From Candidatus Dadabacteria bacterium (GTDB lineage: Bacteria; Desulfobacterota_D; UBA1144; Nemesobacterales; CSP1-2), in the NCBI GenBank assembly GCA_963805855.1, contig CAWDVW010000007.1, forward strand, positions 527,972 through 591,971: DNA of 64,000 bases. The letters are read 5' to 3'. Positions 36,402 through 53,182 of the stretch are shown piece by piece. The notes beneath the pieces are model-generated. The model did no database searches, was not told the DNA's origin, and saw nothing but the letters and a program-made list of their open reading frames with translations. Each line of letters begins with the position of its first letter. Position 1 is the stretch's first letter. Made by a program: the position numbers and the translations under genes.

Positions 36402-36432
36402 ATCCATTGGCTACCAAATTCTAGAGGAATTT

Positions 36433-36455
36433 GAAAAAACTAACTGAGTTTTTTC
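36433..36455 (+). terminator. Hairpin after the feo operon (possible intrinsic terminator)
   Basis: GAAAAAAC-taactga-GTTTTTTC, an 8-bp stem. The stem is A/U-rich, so it is weak. Confidence 0.3.
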
Positions 36456-36495
36456 GTTTAAAGCATTGTTAGATAAAAAATATGCCGATCTATTA

Positions 36496-36511
36496 TGGCA
36501 CATTTATTGCA
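36496..36511 (+). promoter_or_regulatory. Candidate sigma-54 promoter upstream of the octaheme-FeS-NrfD operon
   Basis: TGGCACatttaTTGCA, a near-perfect match to TGGCAC-N5-TTGCW, 124 nt before the ATG at 36636. Confidence 0.6.
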
Positions 36512-36635
36512 CTAACTTTAAACAAAGGAGCGATTTTCCAACATAAAAATTTTAAAAACGTTGTTACCCGTGAAAAAAATACTACAAGAAAAAGAGGTGG
36601 TAATTATTTTTTCATATCGTGAAACGGAGTAAGGT

Positions 36636-37385: not shown

Positions 37386-38194
37386 ATACTAAAGAGCTTC
37401 TTGATAACGTAACAAATAGGAGGAACTTTCTTAAAAGCCTCCTCATAATTCCCTCCGGGTTTTTTCTTGGCGGTCTTTTTTCTAAAATATTCCCCTTCTT
37501 CAAAAAGGCATCTCGTGAAAACACTTCCACATTGGAAAGTATTTATGGGAAATACAATCCGAAGGAGCACTACTATGCGATGGGTATTGACATCGACAAG
37601 TGCATAGGGTGTGGACGATGTGTAGAGGCGTGCAAGATCGAAAATAATGTTCCTCAGGAACCCTATTTCTTCAGAACCTGGGTGGAAAGATATACTATTA
37701 CAGTCGATGGAGAAACGAGTGTGGATAGTCCTGAAGGTGGAATGCATGGCTTCCCCGAGCCCGTTAGTGAGAAAGAAATCCTTCGCACCTTTTTCGTTCC
37801 AAAGTTATGTAATCAATGTGACAATCCACCCTGTGTGCAGGTCTGTCCTGTTGGAGCCACATACCAGACAATAGATGGAGTTGTCCTTGTTGATAAAGAC
37901 TACTGTATAGGATGTCGTTACTGCATTCAGGCCTGTCCTTATGGAGCGAGATATCTCAATCCTGAGACTAAGACGGCGGACAAATGCACATTTTGTTATC
38001 ACAGAATCGTAAAGGGATTGCAGCCTGCTTGCGTAGAGGTATGTCCCACTGGAGCAAGAACTTTTGGAGAAGTAAAACCACGCAACAATCCCCTTGCGCG
38101 ATTTGTCCGATTCAACAATATTGGTGTCTTAAAGCCCTATCTTAACACAGAACCCAAGGTCTACTATGCTAATCTAGACAAGGAGGTTACCTAG
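37382..38194 (+). CDS. Tat-exported 4x[4Fe-4S] ferredoxin subunit (NrfC/PsrB/DsrO/HybA family)
   Basis: 270 aa. Twin-arginine signal NRRNFLKS and four Cys clusters: CIGCGRCVEAC, CNQCDNPPCVQVCP, CIGCRYCIQACP, CTFCYHR...CVEVCP. Confidence 0.9.
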   Translation: MNTKELLDNVTNRRNFLKSLLIIPSGFFLGGLFSKIFPFFKKASRENTSTLESIYGKYNPKEHYYAMGIDIDKCIGCGRCVEACKIENNVPQEPYFFRTWVERYTITVDGETSVDSPEGGMHGFPEPVSEKEILRTFFVPKLCNQCDNPPCVQVCPVGATYQTIDGVVLVDKDYCIGCRYCIQACPYGARYLNPETKTADKCTFCYHRIVKGLQPACVEVCPTGARTFGEVKPRNNPLARFVRFNNIGVLKPYLNTEPKVYYANLDKEVT

Positions 38195-39397
38195 TTGGAT
38201 CCCTTACTTGAGAGACTTGCCATTTCCCTTAAAGAAGTTACAGGCTTCATCTATCCCAATGAGATTGAGCTCCATTGGAGCATCCTAATTGTTGTTTATC
38301 CCTATCTTACGGGTCTTGTAGCAGGGGCTTTTATTCTGGCTTCACTGGAAAGGGTTTTTAATGTTAAAGAGGTAGAGCCTACTTACCGGCTTTCTCTTCT
38401 CACTGCGCTTGCTTTCCTTATTGTCGCGCCTCTTCCTCTTGTGGCTCATCTAGGACATCCCGAACGGGCCTATGAAATTTTCCTCACACCCAATTTCAAG
38501 TCTGCTATGGCTATGTTTGGCTTTGTATATGGCTGGTATCTATTAGTTGTTCTTCTCGTGGAATTGTGGTTTGAGTACAGGAAGGATATCGTTGTCTGGT
38601 CTAACAAAGAAAGAGGGTTGAAAAGGTTTATTTATCTCATCTTAACCCTTGGGGCTTCAGACCTTTCAGAAAGATCTCTTCAGTTTGACAGAAAGGCTGC
38701 AAAATTTATAACCATCATAGGCATTCCATCCGCTTTCCTCCTTCATGGTTATGTGGGTTTTATCTTCGGCTCTGTGAAGGCGAACCCCTGGTGGAGCAGT
38801 GTGCTTATGCCAGTAGTTTTTTTGTTTTCCGCTATAGTATCGGGGATCGCGCTTGTGATGTTACTCTACATGGTTATTACTCTCTTTCGACGAAAAAGTG
38901 TGGATATGGCCTGTATGGATAAGCTCGCTTCCTTTTTGCTCTATGCAATGATACTGGACTTCTCACTGGAAAACCTTGACTTCATTCACCGCATTTACGA
39001 ATCAGAAGAATCCATAAAAATACTGTACCAGCTTTTAATCAGCAAGCTATTCATCAGTATGGTTGTGATTCAGATGCTGTTAGGAACTATAATTCCAATG
39101 GTCTTATTGGCATGGACAAAGTTGACGCGCCTTCCTGATGAGTTAAGGCGTCTTATCTACTTTGGGAGCGCAATTCTTACCCTGATAGGAATTTTTAGTA
39201 TAAGATGGAATGTGGTTATCGGGGGGCAATTATTTTCCAAGAGCTTAAGAGGGCTTACAACGTACAAAATGGAATTGCTCGGAATTGAAGGACTCTTGGT
39301 GGCGTTATTCTTTCTAACGCTCCCATTTATTATTCTGTACATCCTCGTTGCTCTGTTGCCGCCATGGAAGGAAGCAGAGGTTAAAATTGAAACGTAG
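38195..39397 (+). CDS. NrfD/PsrC-family quinone-interacting integral membrane subunit
   Basis: 400 aa with about 10 TM helices. Lies directly after the FeS subunit. AGGAGG sits 8 nt before the TTG start. Confidence 0.85.
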   Translation: MDPLLERLAISLKEVTGFIYPNEIELHWSILIVVYPYLTGLVAGAFILASLERVFNVKEVEPTYRLSLLTALAFLIVAPLPLVAHLGHPERAYEIFLTPNFKSAMAMFGFVYGWYLLVVLLVELWFEYRKDIVVWSNKERGLKRFIYLILTLGASDLSERSLQFDRKAAKFITIIGIPSAFLLHGYVGFIFGSVKANPWWSSVLMPVVFLFSAIVSGIALVMLLYMVITLFRRKSVDMACMDKLASFLLYAMILDFSLENLDFIHRIYESEESIKILYQLLISKLFISMVVIQMLLGTIIPMVLLAWTKLTRLPDELRRLIYFGSAILTLIGIFSIRWNVVIGGQLFSKSLRGLTTYKMELLGIEGLLVALFFLTLPFIILYILVALLPPWKEAEVKIET

Positions 39398-39604
39398 AAG
39401 TTTTTCAGTTAGGGGCTATAGGAAGCTAAAGATATATCTGAAAAGTGTGACTTAAAAATCCGTTTGATTTCGTAACGAAATGAAAGGATTCAGGTGAAAA
39501 AACATGTATAAATTTCCCGCACGTCTTGGTTTGATGGTCAAAGATACCGGTTGCACCAAGCTATTAGCTGTATGTTAAAGAAAAGGCAACATGTGATACA
39601 AGTT

Positions 39605-41611
39605 ATGCGATCAAATGAGCGATTGTTTCTCTTAACTCTTTTCTTTTTAATTTTTTGTCCCTTCACAGTTACTTCCGGTTCTGATGAGCTTAAAAGTGAA
39701 GACTGCCTTATATGTCACGAGACGATGGAGCCCTTGGTTGATAAAGGACTCTTAGATGCCTCAATCCATAGTGGTTTCGAGTGCACAGATTGTCATCAGG
39801 ACGTAACACAGATACCCCACGAAGAAGTCCCGAAGAAGGTTGATTGCTCTTCATGTCACCCAGAGATTGCGAAAGAATACTCTGAAAGTATACATGGTGA
39901 AGCAATAGCGAGGGGTGATCGCGATGCCCCAATTTGTACGAGTTGTCACGGCTCACACGGCATTCTTCCAAAGAATAACCCTAAATCTCATATAAACCCC
40001 TTGAATATTCCTGCGACATGTTCAAATTGCCATACAAGTGAAAAGATTACAAAGCAGCACCCACTCCCGTCACCGGAATTTATTGAGAGTTACAGTAAAA
40101 GTGTTCACGGCCGTGGCGTCCTTGTCAGTGGGCTAGTTGTCTCCGCGGTTTGTTCCGACTGCCATGGTGCGCATAATATAAAGCCCAAAAGTGACAAAAA
40201 CTCCGGTGTCTATAGGGCAAATATACCGCTAACCTGTAAGAAGTGCCATCTTGGAATCTATGATGACTATGAGAGGAGCATCCATGGACAGCTCTGGAAA
40301 GAAGGTTTCGAAGCGGGACCAGTGTGTACGACATGCCACAAATCCCATCAGATCACAGAGCCTGTGTCAGCTGGATTCAGGCTTCAGATATCTGAGGAGT
40401 GTAGTGGATGCCATGAGGCCAGAGCACTTACCTATCGGGACACATTCCACGGGCAGTCAACGTCTCTAGGGTTTGTTCAGGTCGCAAAATGCTCAGATTG
40501 CCATACCCCTCACCTAAATCTTCCAGAAGAAAACCCACTTTCATCAGTCTATTCCGGAAATCTCATCGACACTTGCGGCAAATGTCACTCCAATATAAAT
40601 AAGAAATTTATCACCTATGACCCACATGCCGATCCTCACGATAAGGATAGATCTCCTCTGCTTTATTACGTAAATACCCTCATGAATTGGCTTCTCATTT
40701 CAGTTTTTGGCTTTTTTGGCTTACATCTGGTTCTTTGGCTTCAGCGCTCAGCCGTAGCAGTAGCAAGGGGCGAGATTCCCACCCACTGGAGCGGCGACAA
40801 GTATGTTCGCCGGTTTAGCCTTCCCCACAGGATTACGCACGTTACTCTTGTCATAAGCTTCCTAGGACTTGCTGCTACGGGACTTCCACTCATGTATAAT
40901 TACACGGCGTGGGGAAAAATTCTCGAAGGAATTCTAGGCGGCGTTGAGGTTACAAGGTACTTCCATAGATTCTTTGCAATAGTGACATTGGGTTACATTA
41001 GTTTTCATCTCGGTTATATGCTAGACAAGATATTTTTAAAGGGCAACATAAGCCTTCTCTATGGTCCTAATTCTATGATTCCTAGGAGTGAAGACATTGT
41101 GGATCTCTACAAGAACATAAGGTGGTTCTTATACTTAGGTCCCCGTCCGAAACTGGACAGATGGACATATTGGGAGAAGTTCGATTATTTTGCGGTTTTC
41201 TGGGGAATACCGGTGATAGGCTTCTCCGGACTTATGCTCTGGTTTCCCGAGGTCTTTACAAAGATTCTTCCTGGCTACTTTCTAAATGTGGCAATGATAG
41301 TCCACGGAGAGGAAGCCCTTCTTGCAGTTGGATTCATATTCACATTCCATTTCTTCCACACCCATCTCCGACCTGAGAGTTTTCCGTTAGACACTGTCAT
41401 TTTTACCGGCAAAATACCTCTGGAAAGATTTATCGAGGAAAGACCCGAAGAATACAATAGGCTACTCAAAGAGGGAAGGCTTGAAGAAATCATTGTTGAA
41501 CCGCCATCACAACTTGCTATCATGTTCTCTAAGTGGTTTGGTTTTGCTGCACTAGGCGTAGGATTGATCTTGATCATCGCGATCTTTGCGACCTTCCTTG
41601 CTAATATTTAG
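39605..41611 (+). CDS. 11-heme cytochrome c fused to a C-terminal FdnI/HydC-type cytochrome b membrane domain (CbcL-like)
   Basis: Signal peptide MRSNERLFLLTLFFLIFCPF, 11 CXXCH motifs (CLICH ... CGKCH), then 4-5 TM helices with conserved His (PHRITHV, YFHRFF, IVHGEEALL, FHFFHTHL). The start is uncertain (track 39551, ATG 39572 or 39605). Confidence 0.8.
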   Translation: MRSNERLFLLTLFFLIFCPFTVTSGSDELKSEDCLICHETMEPLVDKGLLDASIHSGFECTDCHQDVTQIPHEEVPKKVDCSSCHPEIAKEYSESIHGEAIARGDRDAPICTSCHGSHGILPKNNPKSHINPLNIPATCSNCHTSEKITKQHPLPSPEFIESYSKSVHGRGVLVSGLVVSAVCSDCHGAHNIKPKSDKNSGVYRANIPLTCKKCHLGIYDDYERSIHGQLWKEGFEAGPVCTTCHKSHQITEPVSAGFRLQISEECSGCHEARALTYRDTFHGQSTSLGFVQVAKCSDCHTPHLNLPEENPLSSVYSGNLIDTCGKCHSNINKKFITYDPHADPHDKDRSPLLYYVNTLMNWLLISVFGFFGLHLVLWLQRSAVAVARGEIPTHWSGDKYVRRFSLPHRITHVTLVISFLGLAATGLPLMYNYTAWGKILEGILGGVEVTRYFHRFFAIVTLGYISFHLGYMLDKIFLKGNISLLYGPNSMIPRSEDIVDLYKNIRWFLYLGPRPKLDRWTYWEKFDYFAVFWGIPVIGFSGLMLWFPEVFTKILPGYFLNVAMIVHGEEALLAVGFIFTFHFFHTHLRPESFPLDTVIFTGKIPLERFIEERPEEYNRLLKEGRLEEIIVEPPSQLAIMFSKWFGFAALGVGLILIIAIFATFLANI

Positions 41612-41759
41612 AGCCTCTTCGAGAGACGGAGTTATACTAAATGTTGATAATTAATTTAGAAAACAAAGCACAGTCTTCGATATAAACATAAACTTGAAAC
41701 GCGGGTATATTTTTGGTGAGACTACTGATGAATCTTAGATCCACAAGGGAGAAGTTCAC

Positions 41760-43268
41760 ATGAGATTACCTAGGCTTGTCCACAATTGGTTAAGCTATGC
41801 CGGTGCGGCTATAGCGGCTCTGTCGCTAATTCTTTTTATCTTCCTATTTGCCCTTCACTCAATCGTTGATACCTCAGGAGTGCCGTACGCCGGGCTGATC
41901 ATCTTCGTACTTGTTCCGATGATTTTTGTTTTCGGTATGATACTCATCCCGATCGGCATGTTGCTGGAGTGGCGCCTCTGGAGAACCAAGCGTATAAGAT
42001 CATTACCGCGGTTTCCTATAATCGACTTAAACAACCCAAACCAACGGAATGCGACATTCATCTTTTTAGTGGGCTCAATCCTGCTCATACTTCTTGTTAC
42101 TGTTAGTGGTTACAAAGCCTATCATGTGACTGATTCGGTCGCCTTCTGCGGCACGCTTTGCCACAGCGTGATGCAACCCGAGTACACCGCTTATCAGAAT
42201 TCGCCCCATGCAAGGGTCCGCTGCGTCGACTGCCATGTGGGACCAGGGGCGGACTGGTTTGTCAAATCCAAAATGTCAGGACTATACCAGGTTTACGCGG
42301 TTCTCCTTAACAAATACCCGAGGCCTATTCCGGTCCCAATCGAGAGCTTACGCCCTGCCCAGGAAACATGTGAGCAGTGTCACTGGCCCGAGCAATTTTT
42401 TGGGGCCCAACAAAAAAGGCTGATCCATTTTTTGCCTGACGAGAATAATACTCGTTGGGATATTAATCTGCTTATCAAAATCGGTGGGGGCAGCCCTGAG
42501 ACCGGGCTGACCGAAGGAATCCACTGGCACATGAACATTGCCAATCGGGTTGAATATATCGCCACGGATGAGATCCGACAGGAGATTCCCTGGGTAAGAA
42601 TGACGAATTTGGAAACTGGAGAGGCTATCGAGTACATGTCAACCGAAAATCCACTTTCAGAGGAAGAAATCGGCAATGCACATATACGGAAGATGGACTG
42701 CATGGATTGCCACAACCGACCCACGCACATTTTCCGTTCCCCTAGCTACTCGATGAATCTCGCTTTAGGCACCGGCAAGATAGATCCTACGTTGCCCTTC
42801 ATTAAACAAACCGGCGTCAAACTGCTGTCTGGAAATTATGACTCCACGGAATTGGCGCTTGGGGAAATTGAGAGTGGGGTCAAAAAATTCTACCGGGACG
42901 GAAATTCTGACTTGACAAATCACAAAGAAGATTTGATTTCCGGTGCAATAGTGGGGATCCAGGACATTTATCAGAACAACTTTTTCCCTGATATAATGAA
43001 GGTGCGGTGGGACGTCTACCCGAATAACGTCGGTCACCTGAATTCCCCTGGGTGCTTTCGCTGTCACGATGGACTTCACAAGACTGCAGACGGAAAGATG
43101 ATCACGACTAAGTGTACTGCCTGCCATACTATCATATCACAGGGAACACCAGAGAATATGGAGTATTCAATGGAACCAGACGGGCTTGCTTTTCGGCATC
43201 CCGAGGATATCGGAGAGATGTGGAAGGAGATAAAGTGTAGCGACTGCCACACCGGCCAACTGCCATGA
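41760..43268 (+). CDS. Inner-membrane multiheme cytochrome c, 3 TM + NapC/NirT-like region + 7 heme motifs (ImcH-like)
   Basis: 502 aa with three N-terminal TM helices. FCGTLCHSVMQPEY...SPHARVRCVDCHVG is NirT-like. The heme motifs are CGTLCH (CX3CH), CVDCH, CEQCH, CMDCH, CFRCH, CTACH and CSDCH. Confidence 0.75.
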   Translation: MRLPRLVHNWLSYAGAAIAALSLILFIFLFALHSIVDTSGVPYAGLIIFVLVPMIFVFGMILIPIGMLLEWRLWRTKRIRSLPRFPIIDLNNPNQRNATFIFLVGSILLILLVTVSGYKAYHVTDSVAFCGTLCHSVMQPEYTAYQNSPHARVRCVDCHVGPGADWFVKSKMSGLYQVYAVLLNKYPRPIPVPIESLRPAQETCEQCHWPEQFFGAQQKRLIHFLPDENNTRWDINLLIKIGGGSPETGLTEGIHWHMNIANRVEYIATDEIRQEIPWVRMTNLETGEAIEYMSTENPLSEEEIGNAHIRKMDCMDCHNRPTHIFRSPSYSMNLALGTGKIDPTLPFIKQTGVKLLSGNYDSTELALGEIESGVKKFYRDGNSDLTNHKEDLISGAIVGIQDIYQNNFFPDIMKVRWDVYPNNVGHLNSPGCFRCHDGLHKTADGKMITTKCTACHTIISQGTPENMEYSMEPDGLAFRHPEDIGEMWKEIKCSDCHTGQLP

Positions 43269-43338
43269 ATCGACTCAGTCAATCGAATTAGGGTCTCGAC
43301 AAAAACAACGGACTGAGGTTGTAAGGGCTTGATCACTC

Positions 43339-43983
43339 TTAGGGTGTTATCTCTATTAATCCCTTTCGAATGGCAAATTTTATGAGGTCGGTTCGGGTGT
43401 GAATATTAAGCTTTTCCATTATGTGTGTTCGATGGCCCATCACAGTTTTAACACTCATGTAAAGCATATCAGCGATCTCATTGTTCTTATAGCCCTCTGC
43501 AACAAGCTTTAGCACCTGTTTTTCTCTATTAGTGAGGCTTTCGTAAGGGTCTTCTTCAATATCTTTATCCTTTCCTTGCAGGTACCCCTCTATCACAACA
43601 GGAGCGACCTCGGGATGCAAAAACGTACTGCCTCTCATCGCTGCTTGAATCGCGGATATAAGCTCTGTACTCGTTGCTTTTTTAAGGACATAGCCAGAAG
43701 CACCTGCTTTTAAGAACCTGTATATATATTCTTTATTATCATACTGGGTAAGGACAATGATTTTTGTCTTAGGGCAGGCATTTCGTATCTCCAGAGTGGC
43801 TTCGAGCCCACCTAGGCCAGGCATAGCGATATCCATTAGCACCACATCCGGCTTGACCTTTCGGGCTTTTTCTATAGCTTCCCTACCATCTGTGGCATCG
43901 CCCACGACGTCAATGTCTCCGCAACCCTCTAGAAGCGCCCTTATGCCTTCACGTATAAGGGCATGGTCGTCGGCGATAAGCAC
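43339..43983 (-). CDS. NarL/LuxR-family response regulator
   Basis: 214 aa. REC domain (LIADDH...VVLMDIAMPG...KAGASGYVLK) plus a LuxR HTH (LTNREKQVLKLVAEGYKNNEIADMLYMSVKTV). Confidence 0.93.
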   Translation of the reverse strand: MLIADDHALIREGIRALLEGCGDIDVVGDATDGREAIEKARKVKPDVVLMDIAMPGLGGLEATLEIRNACPKTKIIVLTQYDNKEYIYRFLKAGASGYVLKKATSTELISAIQAAMRGSTFLHPEVAPVVIEGYLQGKDKDIEEDPYESLTNREKQVLKLVAEGYKNNEIADMLYMSVKTVMGHRTHIMEKLNIHTRTDLIKFAIRKGLIEITP

Positions 43984-43999
43984 CTTTATATTACTGATT

Positions 44000-45856
44000 T
44001 TAGCTAACCTCCCTTAATGGAACCGTAACTACAACCCTTGTCCCAGATCCGGGTTGTGACTGTACTTCAAGCTTTCCATCCAGAAGTAAGACCCGTTCCT
44101 TCATTCCGAGAAGCCCAAGCCCCCGGCTACCCGACTCTGTACTTGATATACTCCCCAAATCAAATCCAATGCCATCGTCTTCAATCTCTAAACTAATGAA
44201 ACTATCTTCAATCTCCAGATTAATAATAACATTTTCCGCTTGAGAGTGCTTGGCTATATTCGTTATAGCCTCTTGAGCAACCCTAAATAGCACGGTTTCG
44301 ATCTGGGTCTGAAATCTTTTTTCAAACAGATCTCCTTCGTAGCGGAAATTAATGCCCAAGGGCTTGAGGCGTTCTTCTGCATACCACTTTATAGCAGCAG
44401 GAAGCCCGAGGTCATCAAGGATAGCAGGACGGAGGTCAAAAATCATGCGGTGTGTGCTATCTATAGCACGAAGTGCGAGTTTCCTTGCATTATCTATTTT
44501 CACCTCAAGCAACTTAGGTGCGCTCGCCTCTCTTATTGCTTCGAGGGAAATGAGCATTGCAGCAAGAGTTTGGCTCATTTCATCGTGTAACTCCCTTGCA
44601 ATTCTCTTCCGTTCTTCTTCCTGGGCTGAGATTATCCTACGGAGGAGTTCTCCTCGCTTCTCCTCCTTCTTCCTGAGTTCCTCATACAGAGAAAGGGTTT
44701 CTTTTGTTCTCTTATCCACCCTCCTCTCAAGTTCTCCTGTCCAGGCAGCGATTTCGTCCCGGGAATCCTTGAGCTTAATCCTCATTTCATCCAGGGTTTT
44801 GCCAAGTTGCCCGATTTCATCGTCTCCGGATATAGAAATAGGCTCAAAGAGATTGCCAGAAGCAATTCTCCGGGCAGACATTGTTAAAGATTTAACCGGT
44901 GCAATAACGCTCTGAGCTACCCCTAGGGTTAGAATTAGAGTGACTACAAACAATACGGCGCCAAACGTAAAAAAGCGCCTTTTCATACTCTCCACAGGAG
45001 CAAGGGCTTCCCTCTCAGACTGTCTGATATCGATTCCCCAAGGGATCTCGGAGAGAGGAGCAAAAGCCATGATCTCTTTTTTTGGCTCATCCTTTACGGC
45101 CTTCTCGTGGCAGTTGTGGCATGTTCCTACGCTGGGCTGGCCCGTCTTGATAAGTCCTGAAAGAGTTCCGCCATGGTCACTCTCCGTTAGGATGTTTTCC
45201 GGTTTCGTAGAGGCTAAAACAAACCCGTTTCCGTCTACTATTTCGATATACCCTGTCTCCCCAATCTTTACTGGACGGATAACCCTAGCCAATGCAGGTC
45301 CGGTAGGGTCAATTTCCCCTCCTACGACACCCAATGTTCTTCCATTCTTAACCATAGGGATCAGAGCGAATACCGCCTTTTTTGCTTGAGGCCTTATCTC
45401 GAATAAATTAGAAACGATAGGCTTCCCCGTGAGAATAGACTCTCTAACAGGGGGAAAACCCCCGAAATTTGATTCGGCAAGGGCTGGACGAGGAGGTTCT
45501 ATCCACAAGAGATGCCCTCTACCGTCAAGCAAAAACACGTTGGCGAAAATTGACCGCAATAATGCATTGTGAAGAGCGGCTTTCTCCGCTGCCAGGTCTT
45601 CGTCTGCCAGATTGACGCCCTTGGAGAAAGCAACTTCTTGAAGATACATAAGATTCTGCCTGATTAAATCCTCGAGATTGCTCGCAACTGTTTGGGCAAG
45701 CACGAGCCGCTCTCGAAGCATTTGGTTGACACTGTCGCGCATACTCAAAAAATCCGAGACACCAAGTATTGCTAGTATGGTCAGCACACCAGAGGCGCTG
45801 AGTAAGATTATTCTTCTTCGCAGGCTGGGTCTTTCAAAAAAGGATCTTAAGCCCAT
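44000..45856 (-). CDS. Sensor histidine kinase (HAMP + HisKA_3 + HATPase) with a periplasmic domain carrying a CXXCH heme-c motif
   Basis: 618 aa with two TM helices flanking a ~250-aa periplasmic domain that contains GTCHNCHEK (codons 45107-45121). H-box RIARELHDEMSQ. ATPase motifs GFDLG and GLGLLGMKER. Confidence 0.88.
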   Translation of the reverse strand: MGLRSFFERPSLRRRIILLSASGVLTILAILGVSDFLSMRDSVNQMLRERLVLAQTVASNLEDLIRQNLMYLQEVAFSKGVNLADEDLAAEKAALHNALLRSIFANVFLLDGRGHLLWIEPPRPALAESNFGGFPPVRESILTGKPIVSNLFEIRPQAKKAVFALIPMVKNGRTLGVVGGEIDPTGPALARVIRPVKIGETGYIEIVDGNGFVLASTKPENILTESDHGGTLSGLIKTGQPSVGTCHNCHEKAVKDEPKKEIMAFAPLSEIPWGIDIRQSEREALAPVESMKRRFFTFGAVLFVVTLILTLGVAQSVIAPVKSLTMSARRIASGNLFEPISISGDDEIGQLGKTLDEMRIKLKDSRDEIAAWTGELERRVDKRTKETLSLYEELRKKEEKRGELLRRIISAQEEERKRIARELHDEMSQTLAAMLISLEAIREASAPKLLEVKIDNARKLALRAIDSTHRMIFDLRPAILDDLGLPAAIKWYAEERLKPLGINFRYEGDLFEKRFQTQIETVLFRVAQEAITNIAKHSQAENVIINLEIEDSFISLEIEDDGIGFDLGSISSTESGSRGLGLLGMKERVLLLDGKLEVQSQPGSGTRVVVTVPLREVS

Positions 45857-45857
45857 C

Positions 45858-46418
45858 TCAATCGTGAATGCTCCTTGCTATTTTAAGTAAATCCTCAACC
45901 GACCCGTTAGATCTTAAGACTATCTTTCTATCCCCTTGTCTCCAGCTTAGCTGTGTCCACCGGCTTCCTTTCTCCACTACACCGAGTTCTAGCGTCCCTT
46001 TCGCTCCACCGACCGAGACTTGAATCTCTTCGGAATCTCTATTGGGTTCCATTAAATCGACTCCCAACCCTTTGCTTTCATCTGTGTTTGAAATAATTTC
46101 GTAAATTACCAAGCTAGGCCTACCATCTCCTTGTGAAATGAATACCAGTGTTATAATGAGGGAGGGCTTTCTTACCACCCTGATTTCTTCAGGCGGCCAG
46201 ATGAGATAATCTGGGAAGTATGAGGGAAGAAATATTTTTAATCCAAGTGAAAATTCAGCTTCTTCTACGCTACTGTAAAATTTGTGTTCGCTTTCCTTTA
46301 TATATGCGGGGACTTTTTTCAAAATGTATAGTGATATCAATACCACACACATCAAGATAGTGATAGATAACACTATTTTCGACATTTCTCTTAAAAAGTA
46401 AGTAGCTTTTCCAGTCAT
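45858..46418 (-). CDS. Membrane-anchored hypothetical protein (possibly DUF4367-like)
   Basis: 186 aa with an N-terminal TM helix. The C-terminus WRQGDRKIVLRSNGSVEDLLKIARSI resembles DUF4367 ends. Only 1 nt separates it from the kinase gene. Confidence 0.4.
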   Translation of the reverse strand: MTGKATYFLREMSKIVLSITILMCVVLISLYILKKVPAYIKESEHKFYSSVEEAEFSLGLKIFLPSYFPDYLIWPPEEIRVVRKPSLIITLVFISQGDGRPSLVIYEIISNTDESKGLGVDLMEPNRDSEEIQVSVGGAKGTLELGVVEKGSRWTQLSWRQGDRKIVLRSNGSVEDLLKIARSIHD

Positions 46419-46466
46419 AACTTTAGGCCGTTTGCCTTAATTCAAATTGTGAGAGCATCTTAGCGC

Positions 46467-47489
46467 TCATACGACAAAGAATAGCAGCACAATTAGCGAA
46501 AAAGCTGTTATACCGAGTCGAATATTTGGATACGGAGGTTTATAGATATTCTTTGGGCGTACCAACCTTGTTACTCTGTTCTCGATTCGTACCCTGTGCG
46601 AGTGACTCTCAATATTATGAGCTATTGATAAGATTCTACCTCTAAAGCCGGACTTTGATATTTGAGAAGACCCACCTGCTTTACCCATCCGAAAAATTTT
46701 TACTAAGCTTGAAGCGATAGCAAGCGGCTTCCCGGTAAACGTTGAAGCAAGATCATCGCAGAGTGTCTCTCGTTCATTTATGATTCTTCGAAATTCAACA
46801 AGGACAACCGGATTATAAAACATGATGAATCGAAAAGTGAATAATACCCAACCTGTGGCGTTATCCTTTCTCAATACGTGACCCATCTCATGGGCAAGCA
46901 CCCCTTGTAGCTCTTCAAGGTCGAGAGCCTCTATGAGAGAATAGGAGATGTTGATGGAACCGTTCGTCAGCCCTTTTGCATATATTATAGGCTCTTTCCC
47001 GTTTAATAGGAAAATCCTTGGCACAGCCATAGGTAACCTTTGCTCCAGATCTCTTATGACTCCATCAAGTTTAGGAATTGTACCACTCCTATAAAGGGTC
47101 TTATCGTCCTCTCCAGCATAGTGATGAATTAGTGTCGGAATAGCTTCTTGTACAACAAAAATAAGGGTCACAACTCCCAATAGGACAAGAGCTAAATGCC
47201 AAACCAAAATGCCGTCAACCAATCTTAAAAGTAGCCATTGGTTTATATCGAAGATAGCCATATCTTCACGGAACTCCGAGCTTCCGCGATGAGGATAGAT
47301 CAGTTGATACAGAGGGAAAGATAAAACCGGAATCAGTATTACGAGACTACGAAACCTGATTTGTAGGAGCGGACGCTCTTCATGCCATATTTTTAATAAT
47401 ACTTCAATAACAAGGGCTATGATAAAAGAATGCAGTACACACTGAAACACATATTGACTAAAACTAAATTCCAAAAAATCCATTTCCAT
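46467..47489 (-). CDS. M56 (BlaR1/MecR1-type) membrane zinc metalloprotease/sensor
   Basis: 340 aa with 4+ TM helices. HEXXH motif LAHEMGHVLRKDN and ERETLCDDLA. No adjacent BlaI-type repressor. Confidence 0.75.
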   Translation of the reverse strand: MEMDFLEFSFSQYVFQCVLHSFIIALVIEVLLKIWHEERPLLQIRFRSLVILIPVLSFPLYQLIYPHRGSSEFREDMAIFDINQWLLLRLVDGILVWHLALVLLGVVTLIFVVQEAIPTLIHHYAGEDDKTLYRSGTIPKLDGVIRDLEQRLPMAVPRIFLLNGKEPIIYAKGLTNGSINISYSLIEALDLEELQGVLAHEMGHVLRKDNATGWVLFTFRFIMFYNPVVLVEFRRIINERETLCDDLASTFTGKPLAIASSLVKIFRMGKAGGSSQISKSGFRGRILSIAHNIESHSHRVRIENRVTRLVRPKNIYKPPYPNIRLGITAFSLIVLLFFVV

Positions 47490-47546
47490 ATTCTATCAAT
47501 AGACCACCTAAATACCATTTGCCCCAATGAATATCCACTGAATTTA

Positions 47547-48341
47547 TTATACATTATCCCCTTTTTCGTCCCCAGCAAGTTCTTTATTCTCTTCATTCTT
47601 AGTCCAGGATTTAATAACCTCTGCGTATTCTAAAGGGTGATCTTTTTCCATTCTCTCTCGTGAAATCTTTCCAGTGAATATACTCGGGTCGAATGGAAAT
47701 ACATCGGGGTTAAAATGTGCTCCATACATATGCCAGATAATTATGACGAGAAAGGCAAGCAGAGCCTCATAACCGTGGACAGTTTCCGCTACAGGTATGA
47801 TCACTCCCGGTAAGAATTTTGTAAAAAAGATCGGAAAGTAGAGGACAAAGCCTGAAACGATCATAAACATCCCGCCGAGTACAAGTCCCCAATATTCAAA
47901 CTTTTGCCTAAAATCGTAGCGACCGAATTTAGGGTGCTCCTCGGAAAGCCCCATGTAGTATCTAAGCATTCCCACGGCATCGTTGAAATCCTTAAATGTT
48001 GGGATTATCGAAGGTCGTACCTTTCTCAGAAGAACTAATAGAGTAATACGACCCAAATGCCAAACGACCAGTGCGGCAAACAGAATACCAAACATGCGGT
48101 GGATAAAACGAGTCATGTCAATACCCCCAAGCCTCGTTATAATCCATGCTGACCACCGGGCTTCAAAAAATTCCTGAGGGAGCCCTGTAATCACGAGCAT
48201 GATAAAAAAAATCATAACCAGAAGGTGCTCTACCCTTTGAAGGAGACTAAATCTTACAAACTTATCTGGAAGATACATTCCCCGCTGCATAAACTCATTT
48301 TTGGAATTATTACCTTCTTCAAGATTTATCTCATCCTTCAT
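47547..48341 (-). CDS. FdnI/HydC-type membrane cytochrome b (stand-alone paralogue of the C-terminal domain of 39605..41611)
   Basis: 264 aa. RFSLLQRVEHLL, FIHRMFGI, AETVHGYEALLAF, WHMYGAHFNPDVFPFDPSIFTGKISRERMEKDHPLEY. The sequence is colinear with the CbcL-like C-terminus. Confidence 0.85.
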   Translation of the reverse strand: MKDEINLEEGNNSKNEFMQRGMYLPDKFVRFSLLQRVEHLLVMIFFIMLVITGLPQEFFEARWSAWIITRLGGIDMTRFIHRMFGILFAALVVWHLGRITLLVLLRKVRPSIIPTFKDFNDAVGMLRYYMGLSEEHPKFGRYDFRQKFEYWGLVLGGMFMIVSGFVLYFPIFFTKFLPGVIIPVAETVHGYEALLAFLVIIIWHMYGAHFNPDVFPFDPSIFTGKISRERMEKDHPLEYAEVIKSWTKNEENKELAGDEKGDNV

Positions 48342-48369
48342 TTTATTATCCCTTTGAATCTTTACTCAG

Positions 48370-49440
48370 TTATCTATTTGTCGCCACACGCCAGACATGA
48401 AGCAAGATATGGAGCACTAGCCCGCCTATGGTAAAAGAAATAAATATCTTATAAAAGAGCTTTATATAATACACGAGGGGAGCCTTGTCAGGGCTCGGTT
48501 CGTAGTGAGAAAGCCACGCCCCAGGAAAGTTTGTGGTGGCATCCGGGTGGCATTTTTTACACGTGTGTACAAGATTCGCTTTTAGAACAGGAGAATCTGG
48601 GTCACTTACTTTGGTAATATTGTGAACGCCGTGGCAATCGGTACAAACAGGCTTCCAGGAGCTGATATCCTCTGTTTGGCTCTTATAGAATGTAACACTT
48701 ACCCCATGAAAGTCCTTGAGATAAGTTTCTAAAACCTTAGTCGAGAGCCCATATTTCTTCATGAGTGCTTCATTTGCATGACACTTCCCGCATAGCTCAG
48801 GGGTTTTTAACAGAAAGGTACGGGTTCTCGGATCGTCTATATTATGCGCATGGTGGCAATCACTACACACCGGAACGTCCGGGTTGTTTTCTTCAATTAA
48901 AGCCCTCCCGTGAACGCTTTTGCTATAAATTTCGAAGATCCCGGCATGGCACTTCTTGCAGGTTTGGGAAATTCTCGCTTTCGGCCTATCGGGCCTTGTT
49001 ACATAGTGGGCTCCATGACAATCAACGCAGACAGGCGCCGCTGTATTTCCATTTGATAGGAGACTGTAATGAATGCTCTCTAAGGTTTTTGTATAGTTGG
49101 CAAAATGACACCGTTTACAACTCTGATAGAGAGCTAAGCTGTAGGCGCGTCTGTTTTCGAGCTCCTTTTCGGGGTGTGGATAATCTGATATGTCGCTATG
49201 ACAGTCGGTACAGGCCAGTTTGTCACCATGAATCGATGAGGCGAAATTACCTGGGTTCACGTAGAGGGACATTTCCTCTTTGCTCGGCAATACAATACTG
49301 AGGCTTGGATCACTATGACACGCTAGACAAAACTCTACTTCCTCTGACAACTTCGCTTCGGGCTCAGCCAGAGCAAAAATGGGAAATATCAAGACCAAAT
49401 TAACATATATGAAGATCCGCGTCAGCGTAGCTAAAGACAT
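48370..49440 (-). CDS. Nine-heme cytochrome c with a C-terminal membrane anchor
   Basis: 356 aa with a signal peptide and nine CXXCH motifs (CLACH, CTDCH, CKRCH, CVDCH, CKKCH, CSDCH, CGKCH, CTDCH, CKKCH). C-terminal TM helix. Confidence 0.88.
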   Translation of the reverse strand: MSLATLTRIFIYVNLVLIFPIFALAEPEAKLSEEVEFCLACHSDPSLSIVLPSKEEMSLYVNPGNFASSIHGDKLACTDCHSDISDYPHPEKELENRRAYSLALYQSCKRCHFANYTKTLESIHYSLLSNGNTAAPVCVDCHGAHYVTRPDRPKARISQTCKKCHAGIFEIYSKSVHGRALIEENNPDVPVCSDCHHAHNIDDPRTRTFLLKTPELCGKCHANEALMKKYGLSTKVLETYLKDFHGVSVTFYKSQTEDISSWKPVCTDCHGVHNITKVSDPDSPVLKANLVHTCKKCHPDATTNFPGAWLSHYEPSPDKAPLVYYIKLFYKIFISFTIGGLVLHILLHVWRVATNR

Positions 49441-49479
49441 CGATGCATCTTTTGGACCTCTTTATCTTATGACGTCATA

Positions 49480-49941
49480 TTAACTTTTATTCGCCTCTTC
49501 GCGCTTCTTTGCGATTTCCTTTTCTAGTTCGCTGATAAGGTCAGGAGCCTCGGGTTTTTTCTCTTCTTTTAGACCCTCCTGAAACTGTTGCCTTTCGCCC
49601 CTTTCGGATCCTCTTCGCCACGTGAGGTAGGCCACACCGGGCATCCAATGCAGCGTAGCTTCTCTCAGCAGGCTCTCCCTTAGCAACCGCAATCCCAGTA
49701 GCGCTTTGCTAGCCACGAGGCCCAAAACCATCGCAAAGGAGATAAACGGCAAGAAGATCACGTACATTAACCCCATAATTGGTCCCAACGCAATCATGGC
49801 TATGGGCTGTATCTTCACGTACCGTTCGTCACTTGCGCCCGGTAAAGGGTCGCTTTCATTCTCTATAGTGACAAAATCCCTTCGCTTGAGACTGAGATAA
49901 ATTCCCCTCTTTACGAGTTGATTACCAAAGTACCTTTTCAT
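49480..49941 (-). CDS. Hypothetical membrane protein
   Basis: MKRYFGNQLVKRG..., two TM helices, and a charged C-terminal tail. The ATG at 49941 has a GGGGG RBS. Confidence 0.45.
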   Translation of the reverse strand: MKRYFGNQLVKRGIYLSLKRRDFVTIENESDPLPGASDERYVKIQPIAMIALGPIMGLMYVIFLPFISFAMVLGLVASKALLGLRLLRESLLREATLHWMPGVAYLTWRRGSERGERQQFQEGLKEEKKPEAPDLISELEKEIAKKREEANKS

Positions 49942-50105
49942 GATTATTACCCCCTTTTTTTTGATCTCACCCTTAATATAGTGAAAGGGGGCTAGTCCTT
50001 GCAATAGGGAAAACGCCCTATTTTTAGTGGAAAAAATACCCTGTTTTTCATATCCGAACGACCTATGCTATATCGAGGCTAAAGTTTATTTTGTCCAGAC
50101 CTATT

Positions 50106-50438
50106 TTATTTAAGGCTCATCAGATAGGTCACAAGCGCTTCGAGTTGCTCATCCGTACCTTTAAAAGGCGGTTGTTTCGTATCTGGAATGACGGATTTCG
50201 GGTCCTTTAGAAATCCCTTTATCCACTCGGCATCCTTCCTGCTGCCCACGCCTGAAAGTTCAGGACCAATCTTCCCTCCAACTCCTTCTATCTTGTGACA
50301 CATGGGGCATTTCATCTCGCTGTATACCTTTTTTCCCGCCTCAATCTGATCTGCCTCCTGAGCGAATCCAGTAATCCCAAACAATAAAACTCCCACAACA
50401 CCAACAGCCAGACACGAAAAGATGTTTCTACATATCAT
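50106..50438 (-). CDS. Class I monoheme cytochrome c
   Basis: 110 aa with a signal peptide. GKKVYSEMKCPMCHKIEGVGGKIGPELSGVG. Confidence 0.85.
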   Translation of the reverse strand: MICRNIFSCLAVGVVGVLLFGITGFAQEADQIEAGKKVYSEMKCPMCHKIEGVGGKIGPELSGVGSRKDAEWIKGFLKDPKSVIPDTKQPPFKGTDEQLEALVTYLMSLK

Positions 50439-50499
50439 TTACCTACCTCCTTAATTTTATTCTGTAATTATGACCCTCTTCACCTTGAACTTTCTTTCC

Positions 50500-51114
50500 T
50501 CAATCGTATTTTGATAAGTCGATCTCAAACCTCTTTTCCCCCCGGGGTTTCTGGAGAATAAACGTAATCTTTTCATTACCTTTTTTCTTCCCGTAATCAA
50601 AGTAGTAATAATTCGCAGCTTTATAAGAAGGTGATTGCGGCCAAGCAAGGGACGGAATCGCCCAGACCATAGGTTTTACTTCTACAGGCCGAATAACTCT
50701 ATCCCCTATCTTTATCACACCGCGAATATCCGTTGCGAAATTTACATCGTCTCCCAAAAGATAAGCCTTGATATAAAAGCTTTTTGCATTTATTATTCCG
50801 GCGATATCCTTTTCGCTAAGCTTTTGGCCACGTTTCTCATTGAAAGCTGACAGTAGCTTCAGCAAACTAACCTTAGTAACCACAGCTACGAATTCCTCTT
50901 CACCTGATATAGATGGATAGCTGTATTCTTGTTTTATCTTCTCTATCTCATCCTTGTGTTTCTCACCATAGACGACAGCCTCATTTACCTGCTTCTCCGT
51001 CGGGTTTATGATCATAGCCCTGGACGGAGAAGCAGTAATCAGACTGATAGCTGTAACTAGGAGCCAAGAGATCTTTCCGTTTTTTAAGGCTGAAAATAGA
51101 CTTATAAAAACCAT
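50500..51114 (-). CDS. Exported hypothetical protein
   Basis: 204 aa with a signal peptide (…ITASPSRA). I recognise no motifs. Confidence 0.45.
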   Translation of the reverse strand: MVFISLFSALKNGKISWLLVTAISLITASPSRAMIINPTEKQVNEAVVYGEKHKDEIEKIKQEYSYPSISGEEEFVAVVTKVSLLKLLSAFNEKRGQKLSEKDIAGIINAKSFYIKAYLLGDDVNFATDIRGVIKIGDRVIRPVEVKPMVWAIPSLAWPQSPSYKAANYYYFDYGKKKGNEKITFILQKPRGEKRFEIDLSKYD

Positions 51115-51231
51115 AACTCCTATCCTGTAAAGTTTTTAGTTAGCTTCACGATCCAGTTTTATCCACTAAGCCAAGCCCCTTTCAGCTCATGATTAAACTT
51201 AGAGGGCGGAACCGTATCTTTTGAATGTCCT

Positions 51232-52227
51232 TTAACCTGTAGCGACAGCCTCCTTAAACCCGACTATTCTCTCAAGGTTTTTCAACACCAAAGTAGCCCC
51301 CGGGGTTTGAACAAACATAGCCGCTACAAGAGGAATTAATACAGTAGTCTCGTTAAACATAAGAACTGCAAGTCCCGCTGTAATGGTAAAGTTCTTTAAG
51401 TAACCTCCATAGAAAAACGCCACTCCGTCTTGATAACTGGAAACCAGCCTTCGGGTTAAAGGAAAGAGAAGCATGGTCATTGCCCCGTAGTATATAATCC
51501 AGAGAATCACGATCTTTCCTATAACTACAGGATATTGGATAATGAACCCAGCTTGAATACTCATAGCACAGAAGATTACGCCAAAAAGTCCAATAGCGGT
51601 TAGTAATGGTAACACCAGTTCCACCCTTCCGTACACCTCCTTTCCGGCAAATTTGGTGAGGCTTAACCGTGTCAAAAAACCGGCAACCAGTGGTACGATA
51701 ATAACAATACAGATCTTCTTGAACATAAAGACCGGACTCAAGGCAACTGCCTTTGGGAGCAGAGCCCAGCTTAACAGAGGAACCGCACCGATTGCAATAA
51801 TGAAACCGACCGCCAGCAGAGTCACGCCAAGAAGGATGTTGCCGTTACCCAATCCTACCCATCCGGGCAGCATCGCACATGCGGGAACTATTACGGTTAA
51901 TATCACACCTGTATATAGATAAGTGTCGTCAGGAACAAAACTTTTTGCCAAAACAACACCCAAAATCGGCGCCACTACCACCTGAAATCCCATACAGGTT
52001 AGTATAATCTTAGGCATCTTTACAATATCGGCAATTCTTTCCACCCTCGTCCTAATCATCATCGGATAGACCATAAGAAAAAATAGGGGAAGAAAAAGGA
52101 AACCTAGACTCTTAACCGCTTCCGGCAGGGTAATACCTACCAGGATAGCGACCGCAATAACTATGACGTAGAGGTAAAAAAGGTTGTTTTTTATAAAAGA
52201 ATTTACCTTCGTGAATAGCTCAACCAT
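51232..52227 (-). CDS. ACR3/BASS-fold (bile acid:Na+ symporter / arsenite efflux superfamily) transporter
   Basis: 331 aa with about 10 TM helices. FFLMVYPMMIRTRVERIADIVKMPKIILTCMGFQVVVAPILG resembles the ACR3/SBF signature region. Confidence 0.6.
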   Translation of the reverse strand: MVELFTKVNSFIKNNLFYLYVIVIAVAILVGITLPEAVKSLGFLFLPLFFLMVYPMMIRTRVERIADIVKMPKIILTCMGFQVVVAPILGVVLAKSFVPDDTYLYTGVILTVIVPACAMLPGWVGLGNGNILLGVTLLAVGFIIAIGAVPLLSWALLPKAVALSPVFMFKKICIVIIVPLVAGFLTRLSLTKFAGKEVYGRVELVLPLLTAIGLFGVIFCAMSIQAGFIIQYPVVIGKIVILWIIYYGAMTMLLFPLTRRLVSSYQDGVAFFYGGYLKNFTITAGLAVLMFNETTVLIPLVAAMFVQTPGATLVLKNLERIVGFKEAVATG

Positions 52228-52571
52228 TTTTCCCCTCCTTTTACAATTAAATTCCCCAGTCGAAACTCACCTGCCCGCAACAAGGGCAATCTAAATTCTG
52301 ATGCGTAACTTGAACGCGCATAACCGTGCATACTAAAAAACCCCACAACACATCCGCCTTCCCGAAGAGTCCTCGGATACGCCTGGCCGACATTCAGATT
52401 GCATCCTTTTCTTCCGAAATTTATATCCTGAATCTACACTCAACATTCCTACTCCGATCTTCAAAGCAACCACCCAAACGATAAAACCTCCCAGAGTTGA
52501 ATTTAGGCTAATTTCCCGGGGATTTATTCCCCCTTTCTCCAAAAGCTCAAACTTCCTATTGTCCCCAATAT

Positions 52572-52587
52572 TGCAAATTCTATGCCA
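52572..52587 (-). promoter_or_regulatory. Candidate sigma-54 promoter (minus strand) upstream of the transporter gene
   Basis: The minus strand reads TGGCATagaatTTGCA, about 344 nt upstream of the ATG at 52227. Confidence 0.5.
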
Positions 52588-52801
52588 AAAAGGTTCCGAA
52601 GTTATTTAGAAATTCGAAATTACTCAACTCTTTTGAAATGTGTTCCATTTTCTGACACCTTACACCTAAATTGGGTTTTTTTTAGAATACGGACTCAGTA
52701 ACTCATCCAAGCAGAAAAAATAATTATCCTCATGTATTTTGGACAGCTTTGGTTTAATTCCAATTAAGCTCGAACATGTTTAGAAGAATTTTAAGAACAC
52801 T

Positions 52802-52817
52802 TGGTACGAATTTTGCA
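52802..52817 (+). promoter_or_regulatory. Candidate sigma-54 promoter upstream of the ferredoxin-like/gltA/FrhB-like genes
   Basis: TGGTACgaattTTGCA, 29 nt before the ATG at 52847, with GGAG in between. Confidence 0.5.
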
Positions 52818-52846
52818 ACTGCGAATATACTAATGGAGTTACACAT

Positions 52847-53182
52847 ATGAACCAAATAGATCAAGTTTTGCAGGAAAAAGAACCTAAGAGCACTGTCTGG
52901 AGTGGAATAGGCCAAAAAGCCCGAGGTAAAAATGTCACCATCTCTTTAAATGAGGAATTTTGCAAAGGCTGTGAGATATGCGTCGAAATATGCCCAAATA
53001 AATGTGTGGAGATGAACGGGGCTTACCGAATGGTAAAAATTCCCAAAGGAACGGAGCGATTAAACTTAAGCGCCCTTGAAGCGGGGATAGAACTGGCACT
53101 AGAAGCTTATGATAAGGTCCCGCCCAATGCTGCATACGCTGGCGATAAAGTACAAGGCTTGGGCAAGGACTTCGATGTCTAA
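52847..53182 (+). CDS. Small protein with a single 4Fe-4S ferredoxin-type motif
   Basis: 111 aa. CKGCEICVEICPNKC is the only complete cluster motif. Confidence 0.5.
   Translation: MNQIDQVLQEKEPKSTVWSGIGQKARGKNVTISLNEEFCKGCEICVEICPNKCVEMNGAYRMVKIPKGTERLNLSALEAGIELALEAYDKVPPNAAYAGDKVQGLGKDFDV

Follow-up and report, generated by a model that had tools for sequence, protein, structure and literature searches.

It is only partly understood how bacteria that respire extracellular acceptors choose among parallel quinol oxidases of the inner membrane, such as ImcH, CbcL and CbcBA of Geobacter; one known regulator is BccR, for cbcBA. A group of six genes in a Candidatus Dadabacteria bacterium raises the question of whether a route of this kind can travel with its own sensor. 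The genes lie in a stretch of 64,000 nucleotides (GenBank assembly GCA_963805855.1, contig CAWDVW010000007.1, positions 527,972 to 591,971), which is referred to here as the window, and encode a multiheme cytochrome c, a cytochrome b, a membrane protease of family M56, a membrane-anchored protein, a sensor histidine kinase with a heme-binding motif and a response regulator. We observed a conserved gene content, domain architecture and set of motifs, and a gene order that is conserved across genomes but permuted. To the reading that the locus is a self-contained respiratory module with its own sensory apparatus we give a probability of roughly 0.5.

The six genes follow one another on the minus strand, with gaps of 28, 57, 48, 1 and 16 nt when calculated from the coordinates of the open reading frames (ORFs). 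These values agree exactly with those in an earlier interpretation of the DNA made without database searches (the sequence-only reading), and the gene identities that it had assigned were borne out by Pfam, motif and transmembrane (TM) evidence. Domains were assigned by Pfam and NCBIfam profile scans, and TM segments were taken from hydropathy. The features of the six genes are as follows.

48370..49440, minus strand: nine-heme cytochrome c, 356 aa (ORF 49440-48370; 9 CXXCH motifs)
47547..48341, minus strand: cytochrome b of the four-TM FdnI/HydC type, 264 aa (Ni_hydr_CYTB, E 2.4e-16)
46467..47489, minus strand: M56/M48 gluzincin membrane protease, 340 aa (PF05569 above cut-off)
46878..46892, minus strand: HEMGH zinc-binding motif of the protease (from the translation; invariant in 22 homologues)
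45858..46418, minus strand: anchored partner protein, 186 aa (no family above cut-off)
44000..45856, minus strand: sensor histidine kinase, 618 aa (TM segment, periplasmic dCache domain with CXXCH, TM segment, HAMP, HisKA_3 and HATPase; Pfam)
45107..45121, minus strand: CHNCH, predicted heme-c attachment motif of the kinase (from the translation; aa 246-250)
43339..43983, minus strand: NarL/LuxR-type response regulator with REC and GerE domains, 214 aa (Pfam)

Gene neighbourhoods were read for the members of the M56 clade, for the genome hits, for 26 metagenome loci and for distant representatives of the anchored-protein family. The 26 metagenome loci were picked with an alignment of the anchored protein, and all loci (given L numbers below) were compared with the proteins of the window by tblastn and blastp. 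An M56 alignment was too generic as a probe of the genome collection, where HtpX-like matches dominated and four true family members were found; the anchor alignment was a much more specific genome probe. The gene set was kept together in about 40 loci with G+C contents of 0.42–0.76, including those of Anaeromyxobacter sp. PSR-1 and of metagenome-assembled genomes (MAGs) from Myxococcales, Nitrospirae and Thermodesulfobacteriota. Four gene orders were seen, in which g0 denotes a small membrane protein that is described below.

Nine-heme c, b, M56, anchor, kinase, regulator: the window's lineage, L008-L012 and L093-L099 (G+C about 0.43); L007/L011 (G+C 0.58; contigs begin at M56); Anaeromyxobacter sp. 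PSR-1 (L016) and a Myxococcales MAG (L015); high-G+C contigs L102, L103, L106, L107, L109-L112, L117 and L121
Kinase, regulator, g0, nine-heme c, b, M56, anchor: L105/L114
M56, anchor, g0, a block of four-heme c, FeS and NrfD genes, 13-heme c, b, kinase, regulator: L014 (a 'Deltaproteobacteria' MAG); its first part also in L004 and L013, whose contigs end after it
M56, anchor, g0, 13-heme c, b, kinase, regulator: L119, with unrelated housekeeping genes on both sides

While the order of the pairs changed, the pairs themselves (c and b, M56 and anchor, kinase and regulator) were never split in the syntenic loci. The cytochrome b gene always came directly after the multiheme cytochrome c gene, the regulator directly after the kinase, and the anchor gene followed M56 in every locus whose contig spans both; in L005/L006 the contig stops just after the anchor gene. 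Identity of the proteins of distant loci to those of the window was 47-56% for cytochrome c, 41-54% for cytochrome b, 27-36% for M56, 25-37% for the anchored protein, 31-45% for the kinase and 52-63% for the regulator. The gap between the anchor and kinase genes was 1 nt in the window, L007, L008, L011 and L012, and gene overlaps of 4-8 nt were found in L015, L119, L121 and L124. Each ORF of the locus has conserved homologues in syntenic loci, and we therefore judge the ORFs to be real genes and not chance reading frames. Conserved and permuted synteny also ruled out a chance juxtaposition of the genes. Retention of the whole set through rearrangement of gene order is strong evidence that it forms a functional unit, and on these comparisons a functional linkage of the six genes is strongly supported. 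The sequence-only reading had proposed a check for co-occurrence in other genomes; the set recurs across phyla, survives reordering and is not unique to one genome. The spacing of the six genes would fit an operon.

What does the respiratory part of this unit resemble? The nine-heme cytochrome c gave Cytochrome_C7, Paired_CXXCH_1 and c3_2 matches in Pfam and has TM segments at residues 6-24 (an N-terminal signal/anchor helix) and 328-346 (C-terminal). The cytochrome b has four TM segments and matched the formate dehydrogenase gamma family of NCBIfam below its cut-off. Two genes that converge on the unit from the opposite strand provide a comparison within the window itself.

39551-41611, plus strand: CbcL-like fusion, convergent, with 11 CXXCH and a cytochrome b domain (Pfam)
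41760-43268, plus strand: ImcH-like cytochrome, convergent, NapC/NirT (Pfam), with 6 CXXCH and 1 CXXXCH

The nine-heme cytochrome c was about 30% identical to the c-domain of the CbcL-like fusion, and the cytochrome b was 35-38% identical to its b-domain. Across both genes together, the fusion aligned with the c/b pair of L012 over 621 residues at 30.8% identity (tblastn E 1e-76). The c/b pair is thus best assigned as a split paralogue of the neighbouring fusion and, with the window's own fusion as the standard of comparison, as a split CbcL-type quinol:cytochrome c module. The 11 CXXCH motifs of the fusion were counted in its longest ORF, which has an uncertain TTG start, as against the nine described for CbcL of G. 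sulfurreducens.

CbcL carries nine hemes c and a HydC/FdnI-like diheme b domain, and no dedicated sensory genes are mentioned for it (PMC6295460). The module is like CbcL (Geobacter sulfurreducens GSU0274), MtrH and MtoC in combining a nine-heme periplasmic cytochrome c with a HydC/FdnI-type b domain. Unlike CbcL, which is a single polypeptide, it is encoded by two genes, 28 nt apart in the window and separate in all relatives, and its c subunit keeps a C-terminal TM helix of its own. The module further differs in adding g0, and in some relatives (L013, L014 and L119) the c subunit carries 13 hemes.

Two more genes lie directly upstream of the six.

49480..50004, minus strand: 'g0', small membrane protein, 174-aa ORF (probably 153 aa, from an ATG at 49941)
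50106..50438, minus strand: monoheme cytochrome c with CPMCH and a signal/anchor helix, 110 aa (Pfam Cytochrom_C, E 1.9e-12)

The g0 protein has one hydrophobic hairpin region and matched no family in Pfam or NCBIfam. Homologues that are 25-41% identical adjoin the cytochrome c gene in L004, L013, L014, L016, L105/L114, L118 and L119, and one of the copies in L004 weakly matched HmcD (DVU_0533). On this distribution g0 is counted among the genes of the conserved set. Its placement differs in Anaeromyxobacter sp. PSR-1, where two homologues in tandem (L016:6537-7417, minus strand) are located downstream of the regulator gene and on the opposite strand, and not ahead of the cytochrome c gene; in L004 and L013, too, g0 is present twice. 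In the window's lineage the unit opens with the monoheme cytochrome c gene, which occupies the same position in L008, L010, L012, L093 and L096-L098 (67-93% identity) and was not found in the Myxococcota-type loci; it belongs to the unit in the window's lineage only. Footprinting upstream of the monoheme cytochrome gene revealed only a conserved ribosome-binding region in five loci and no regulator site. All six genes that the sequence-only reading had grouped thus stay in the unit. Its boundary does not: judged by conserved neighbours, the unit starts upstream of 49440 and is bigger than six genes, with g0 conserved throughout and the monoheme cytochrome added in the window's lineage.

How might such a module be informed of its surroundings? 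The sensor domain of the kinase matched dCache_1 (PF02743) with 45.3 bits against a cut-off of 45. TM segments were found at residues 16-34 and 295-313, and since the CHNCH motif at residues 246-250 lies between them, it is predicted to be periplasmic. An AlphaFold2 model of residues 1-324 showed a double Cache fold (pLDDT 83.3), and Foldseek matched this model to the dCache domains of PctA, PctB, CtaA and Mlp24 (E 1e-12 to 1e-10). In the model, the motif occupies the end of strand 242-246 and extends into the low-confidence loop that comes next (251-255), so that it falls between strands three and four of the Cache module nearest the membrane.

A homologue search with the sensor domain gave 11 proteins, mostly truncated, and homologues were therefore taken from the syntenic loci. 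The CXXCH column was conserved in 20 of the 22 homologues that cover it in the first alignment and also in L119 and L124, and overall the heme motif was kept in about 23 of 28 loci. A periplasmic CXXCH, which had been proposed from the window alone, is hence conserved at a single alignment column, although the homologues are only 31-45% identical. The C..CH residues are fixed at this one column of an otherwise variable loop in genomes with G+C contents of 0.42 to 0.75. From this conservation we infer that the dCache domain of the kinase carries a covalent heme c. The motif reads CH[NSG]CH, with an extra conserved His inside it, in low-G+C lineages and C(D/R/S)xCH in high-G+C ones. Matches of the kinase and regulator to NCBIfam equivalogs (MctS/MctR, UhpB, NarX and others) were all below their cut-offs, and neither protein therefore has a named orthologue; by their domains the two are assigned as a NarL-type two-component system.

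Heme c on a Cache domain has a precedent in the sCache_heme family (DUF3365/Tll0287, PF11845; GSU0582 and GSU0935), in which the CXXCH is inserted between the third and fourth beta strands (PMC12889525). The kinase is like these proteins in its periplasmic Cache sensor, in the topologically equivalent site of the motif and in its signalling output, and differs in its double Cache fold (PF02743, PctA-like) and in the position of the motif in the membrane-proximal module. The proximal module gave no PF11845 match at E <= 10, the whole kinase gave none at E <= 0.01, and the sensor had no sequence match to solved heme sensors (chains of the 3B42/3B47/5B82 type), which ruled out membership of the DUF3365/sCache_heme family. 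The kinase dCache domain seems to have gained heme c independently of that family, which would make its membrane-proximal half a candidate for a second, separate origin of heme-c Cache sensors. A survey of sensor domains in Anaeromyxobacter dehalogenans noted heme only in GSU0582-like PAS domains (PMC3831638).

The same precedent suggests a different signal. Heme-c Cache proteins that are fused to signalling modules bind NO and do not act as O2 sensors, and stand-alone domains of this kind look redox-active (PMC12889525; 10.64898/2026.05.25.727664). The kinase heme could by analogy with the signalling-fused members of this sole characterised heme-c Cache family be a sensor of a gas or ligand, NO or similar, and not of redox poise, and the module would then respond to nitrosative or other small-molecule stress. 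When the proximal modules were aligned, no conserved residue stood out as a possible sixth ligand of the heme, which would fit five-coordinate binding. However, the kinase domain falls outside that family, as the PF11845 scan indicated, and the effector that always accompanies it belongs to the quinol:cytochrome c oxidoreductases of the extracellular-electron-transfer type and is not an NO-detoxifying enzyme. We therefore consider a gas or ligand sensor quite unlikely. Of the redox-sensing circuit that the sequence-only reading had proposed, the functional linkage stands; the redox pool as its signal was not established, given that characterised signalling heme-c Cache proteins act as NO sensors (PMC12889525).

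The remaining pair consists of the protease and its neighbour. The protease scored 42.4 bits against Peptidase_M56 (PF05569; cut-off 31) over the catalytic core only (residues 173-246), and M48 was also above its cut-off. Residues 172-246 aligned with positions 174-248 of the NCBIfam BlaR1 model with no gaps, and profile positions 175-243 matched residues 178-246 of BlaR1 (8exp). Hydropathy placed four TM segments at residues 10-28, 46-64, 94-112 and 322-340, with the protease domain between TM3 and TM4, which is the layout of the N-terminal part of BlaR1. H200, E201, H204, E241, C244 and D245 were invariant. In the loop between TM2 and TM3, W85 was invariant and P66, R68, F73, R74, D81 and L86 nearly so; in BlaR1 this loop is the contact site for the sensor domain. 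The chain stops at residue 340, within or just behind its last TM helix (TM4), and lacks a sensor domain; all 33 close homologues are 264-340 aa long. They form a narrow clade (33 clusters at E <= 1.6e-17), and the next matches were ordinary HtpX proteins at E > 1e-7.

No BlaI-type gene (PF03965) was present in the Pfam tables of L008, L012 and L119, which reach up to 10 kb on either side (to the contig ends), and positions 40000-53000 of the window hold no unassigned ORF of BlaI size. The alignment of the core suggests that the protein matches the transducer half of BlaR1, and the description of it as a BlaR1-type protease with no BlaI partner is upheld. The likeness to BlaR1 and MecR1 consists of the M56 match in Pfam, the ungapped HExxH with its downstream Glu and the four TM segments. 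Those proteins have a C-terminal penicillin-binding sensor domain and act with BlaI or MecI, whereas the M56 protein has no sensor domain and neither repressor was seen; it has instead a separate anchored periplasmic partner, and its genomic partners are cytochromes and a two-component system.

The anchored protein has one TM segment (residues 15-33), preceded by a cytoplasmic tail of about 14 residues. Its AlphaFold2 model (pLDDT 73.7) consists of the TM helix, seven antiparallel strands and a C-terminal helix, which gives a periplasmic beta-sheet domain of about 140 aa. After the TM helix comes an invariant L-P-S-Y-F-P...W-P-P motif. When 1.84 billion representatives were searched with a profile, 325 clusters (50% identity) fell within the family at E <= 0.001, of which 253 reached E <= 1e-10; almost all members are 160-200 aa long. 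Foldseek returned EagT6, PA94, DcrB and RseB/MucB weakly (best E 0.025, TM-scores <=0.46), and DUF4367 (PF14285) scored 19.1 bits against a cut-off of 22.1. The domain thus weakly resembles RseB/MucB and DUF4367 (LolA-like, from anti-sigma systems), with Foldseek probabilities up to 0.99 but E 0.03, below every significance threshold, and no sigma or anti-sigma genes are present. Membership of the DUF4367, RseB or LolA-like families is accordingly a lead from sub-threshold matches. An anti-sigma factor was ruled out by the short cytoplasmic tail and by the absence of a sigma gene nearby.

These parts can be arranged into a mechanism. The g0 protein, the nine-heme cytochrome c and the FdnI-type cytochrome b would form a split CbcL-type inner-membrane quinol:periplasmic-cytochrome oxidoreductase, transcription of which would be controlled, with that of the rest of the module, by the kinase and regulator. 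The kinase would sense through its periplasmic dCache domain, with heme c held covalently in the membrane-proximal half. What this heme signals may be the redox poise of the cytochromes in the periplasm or else the presence of a small molecule that binds to it. M56 and its anchored partner would together be a sensor-transducer of the BlaR1 type that is split over two polypeptides: the periplasmic domain of the partner would stand in for the sensor domain of BlaR1 and dock onto the conserved loop that the protease exposes to the periplasm, and the zinc site, facing the cytoplasm, would cleave a membrane or cytoplasmic target and so modulate signalling or the turnover of the module. Because no BlaI was seen, the substrate can be named only as a set of candidates, namely the anchored protein, the kinase, the regulator and g0, which is a hairpin in the membrane with its tails in the cytoplasm.

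Several results weigh against this arrangement. A promoter and terminator scan of the locus gave counts no higher than those in shuffled sequences. The M56 core fitted HtpX better than BlaR1 both in a profile comparison with the PDB (3.5e-9 against 2.7e-6 for BlaR1) and in NCBIfam (2.8e-12 against 1.1e-8). The anchored protein had no Foldseek match at E <= 0.001, and no Rosetta-stone fusion of its domain to M56 or another protease was found among the best 150 representatives of its family, which are about 120-250 aa long. In L001/L002, genes for a monoheme cytochrome c and a Sel1 protein come after the M56 and anchor genes, and no kinase or regulator was found within 6.8 kb downstream, so that M56 and the anchored protein can act in the absence of the two-component system. 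Finally, the module was retained with the kinase motif lost or altered in L014 (CHRCK), L105/L114 (a deletion), L121-L123 and P0091, which amount to three or four lineages, and heme is therefore not an indispensable input everywhere.

The results on M56 would also be expected if the protease and its anchored partner were an HtpX-like device for assembly, maturation or quality control of the membrane cytochrome complex, with the kinase and regulator merely regulating the operon. Under this explanation, a core that fits HtpX at least as well as BlaR1, the pair of L001/L002 beside cytochrome c genes, the larger Hmc-like cytochrome/FeS/NrfD clusters that M56 and the anchor gene head in L004 and L013, and the lack of a transcription-factor substrate such as BlaI near M56 all find a place. 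The architecture of the protein argues in the other direction, since the four-TM layout, the ungapped alignment from HExxH to the third-ligand Glu and the stop right after TM4 are BlaR1-like. HtpX, with H139...E222 and two N-terminal TM helices, differs from the M56 protein in both spacing and TM layout. An obligate anchored periplasmic partner and a conserved periplasmic loop also point to an input from outside the cytoplasm, which a protease working purely at the cytoplasmic face would not need. On balance we regard an assembly or quality-control role as somewhat unlikely. Of the 'proteolytic branch' that the sequence-only reading had added to its circuit, the BlaR1-like protease is retained; the branch itself was not established, and the protease could equally serve HtpX-like assembly or quality control.

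Lineages with a full module and a CXXCH-less kinase raise a further possibility, in which heme is a lineage-specific modulator and the primary signal enters through the distal dCache pocket or the anchored protein. The membrane-distal module is the usual ligand site in the PctA-type receptors that were the best fold matches. Against this stands the strict retention of C..CH, in a loop otherwise free to vary and over the G+C range of 0.42 to 0.75, a pattern that speaks for selection to keep the heme attached in most lineages, and we think such a role for heme very unlikely. The motif is nevertheless not established as essential, so that heme as the input of the kinase, as first proposed, holds as a conserved motif from which three or four lineages depart. 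In L014 the altered motif of the kinase (L014:11122-12990) is of the CXXCK type, like that of the lysine-ligated active-site heme of NrfA, and could be a ligand switch or a degenerate site.

Beyond the self-contained module with its own sensory apparatus, the M56 and anchored proteins might represent an unrecognised class of split BlaR1-like sensor-proteases that gate a heme-c dCache two-component system, for example by cleavage of the kinase, the NarL-type regulator or g0. The four components would then form a periplasmic redox sensor that decides on deployment of the CbcL-type quinol oxidase. We hold this extended version to be unlikely. If true, a split-protease system in metal-reducers would be a device that picks inner-membrane electron-transfer routes by acceptor potential.

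Is any such system already known? Membrane accessory proteins accompany HisKA_3 kinases and NarL-type regulators in LiaFSR and VraTSR, and CpxAR is associated with CpxP and with HtpX/DegP. The module resembles these systems in its HisKA_3 kinase and NarL-type regulator, in its membrane or periplasmic accessories and in a membrane protease tied to envelope signalling. It differs in that no sequence relationship was found to their accessory proteins, in that the sensor is a heme-motif dCache domain, and in that the output is a respiratory module. Full-text literature searches found no description of a c/b module combined with a heme kinase, a regulator and an M56/anchor pair, in keeping with the statement in the sequence-only reading that it knew of no such system. 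Each part is of a known kind, namely a CbcL-family oxidase, a Cache-type heme sensor, an M56 protease and a NarL-type system. The details that appear new are the splitting of the oxidase, the heme in the proximal module of a dCache domain, and a protease that lacks both BlaI and a sensor domain and has an obligate anchored partner. There is a real chance that the locus is a new signalling arrangement.

The locus would offer a conserved and portable unit that ties a CbcL-type oxidase firmly to a periplasmic heme-motif kinase, together with a family of BlaR1-type proteases that has a separate periplasmic partner in place of BlaI. The module is widespread and undescribed, and it bears on the selection of electron-transfer routes. 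It is present in a cultured strain, Anaeromyxobacter sp. PSR-1, where it occupies about 12.2-18.1 kb of NZ_BAZG01000081.1, and this makes experiments feasible.

The surroundings of the unit are less constant than the unit itself. The CbcL-like/ImcH-like block was kept in L008-L012, L093 and L097-L099 and was absent from L015, L016, L103, L106 and L119; convergence of the unit on this block, which had been noted for the window, is thus correct there and limited to the window's own lineage. Ahead of the CbcL-like and ImcH-like genes, positions 33599-39397 of the window (plus strand) encode FeoB, a DtxR-type iron-dependent repressor fused to FeoA, and a membrane complex of an 8-CXXCH cytochrome, a 4Fe-4S protein and NrfD; with the module, about 17 kb are occupied by electron-transfer and iron genes. 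Directly upstream of M56 and the anchor gene in L001 and L002 (L001:83-922 and L002:2183-3022) is a gene for a 279-aa protein with weak ATP-cone and Mrr_cat matches, which could have a regulatory role or no connection to the pair. Just upstream of the module in the window, positions 50500-52227 (minus strand) hold a 204-aa ORF without a family and a transporter of the SBF type (bile acid:sodium symporter/ACR3-like). Both are absent from the syntenic loci L012 and L008, and they therefore look like an insertion specific to this genome.

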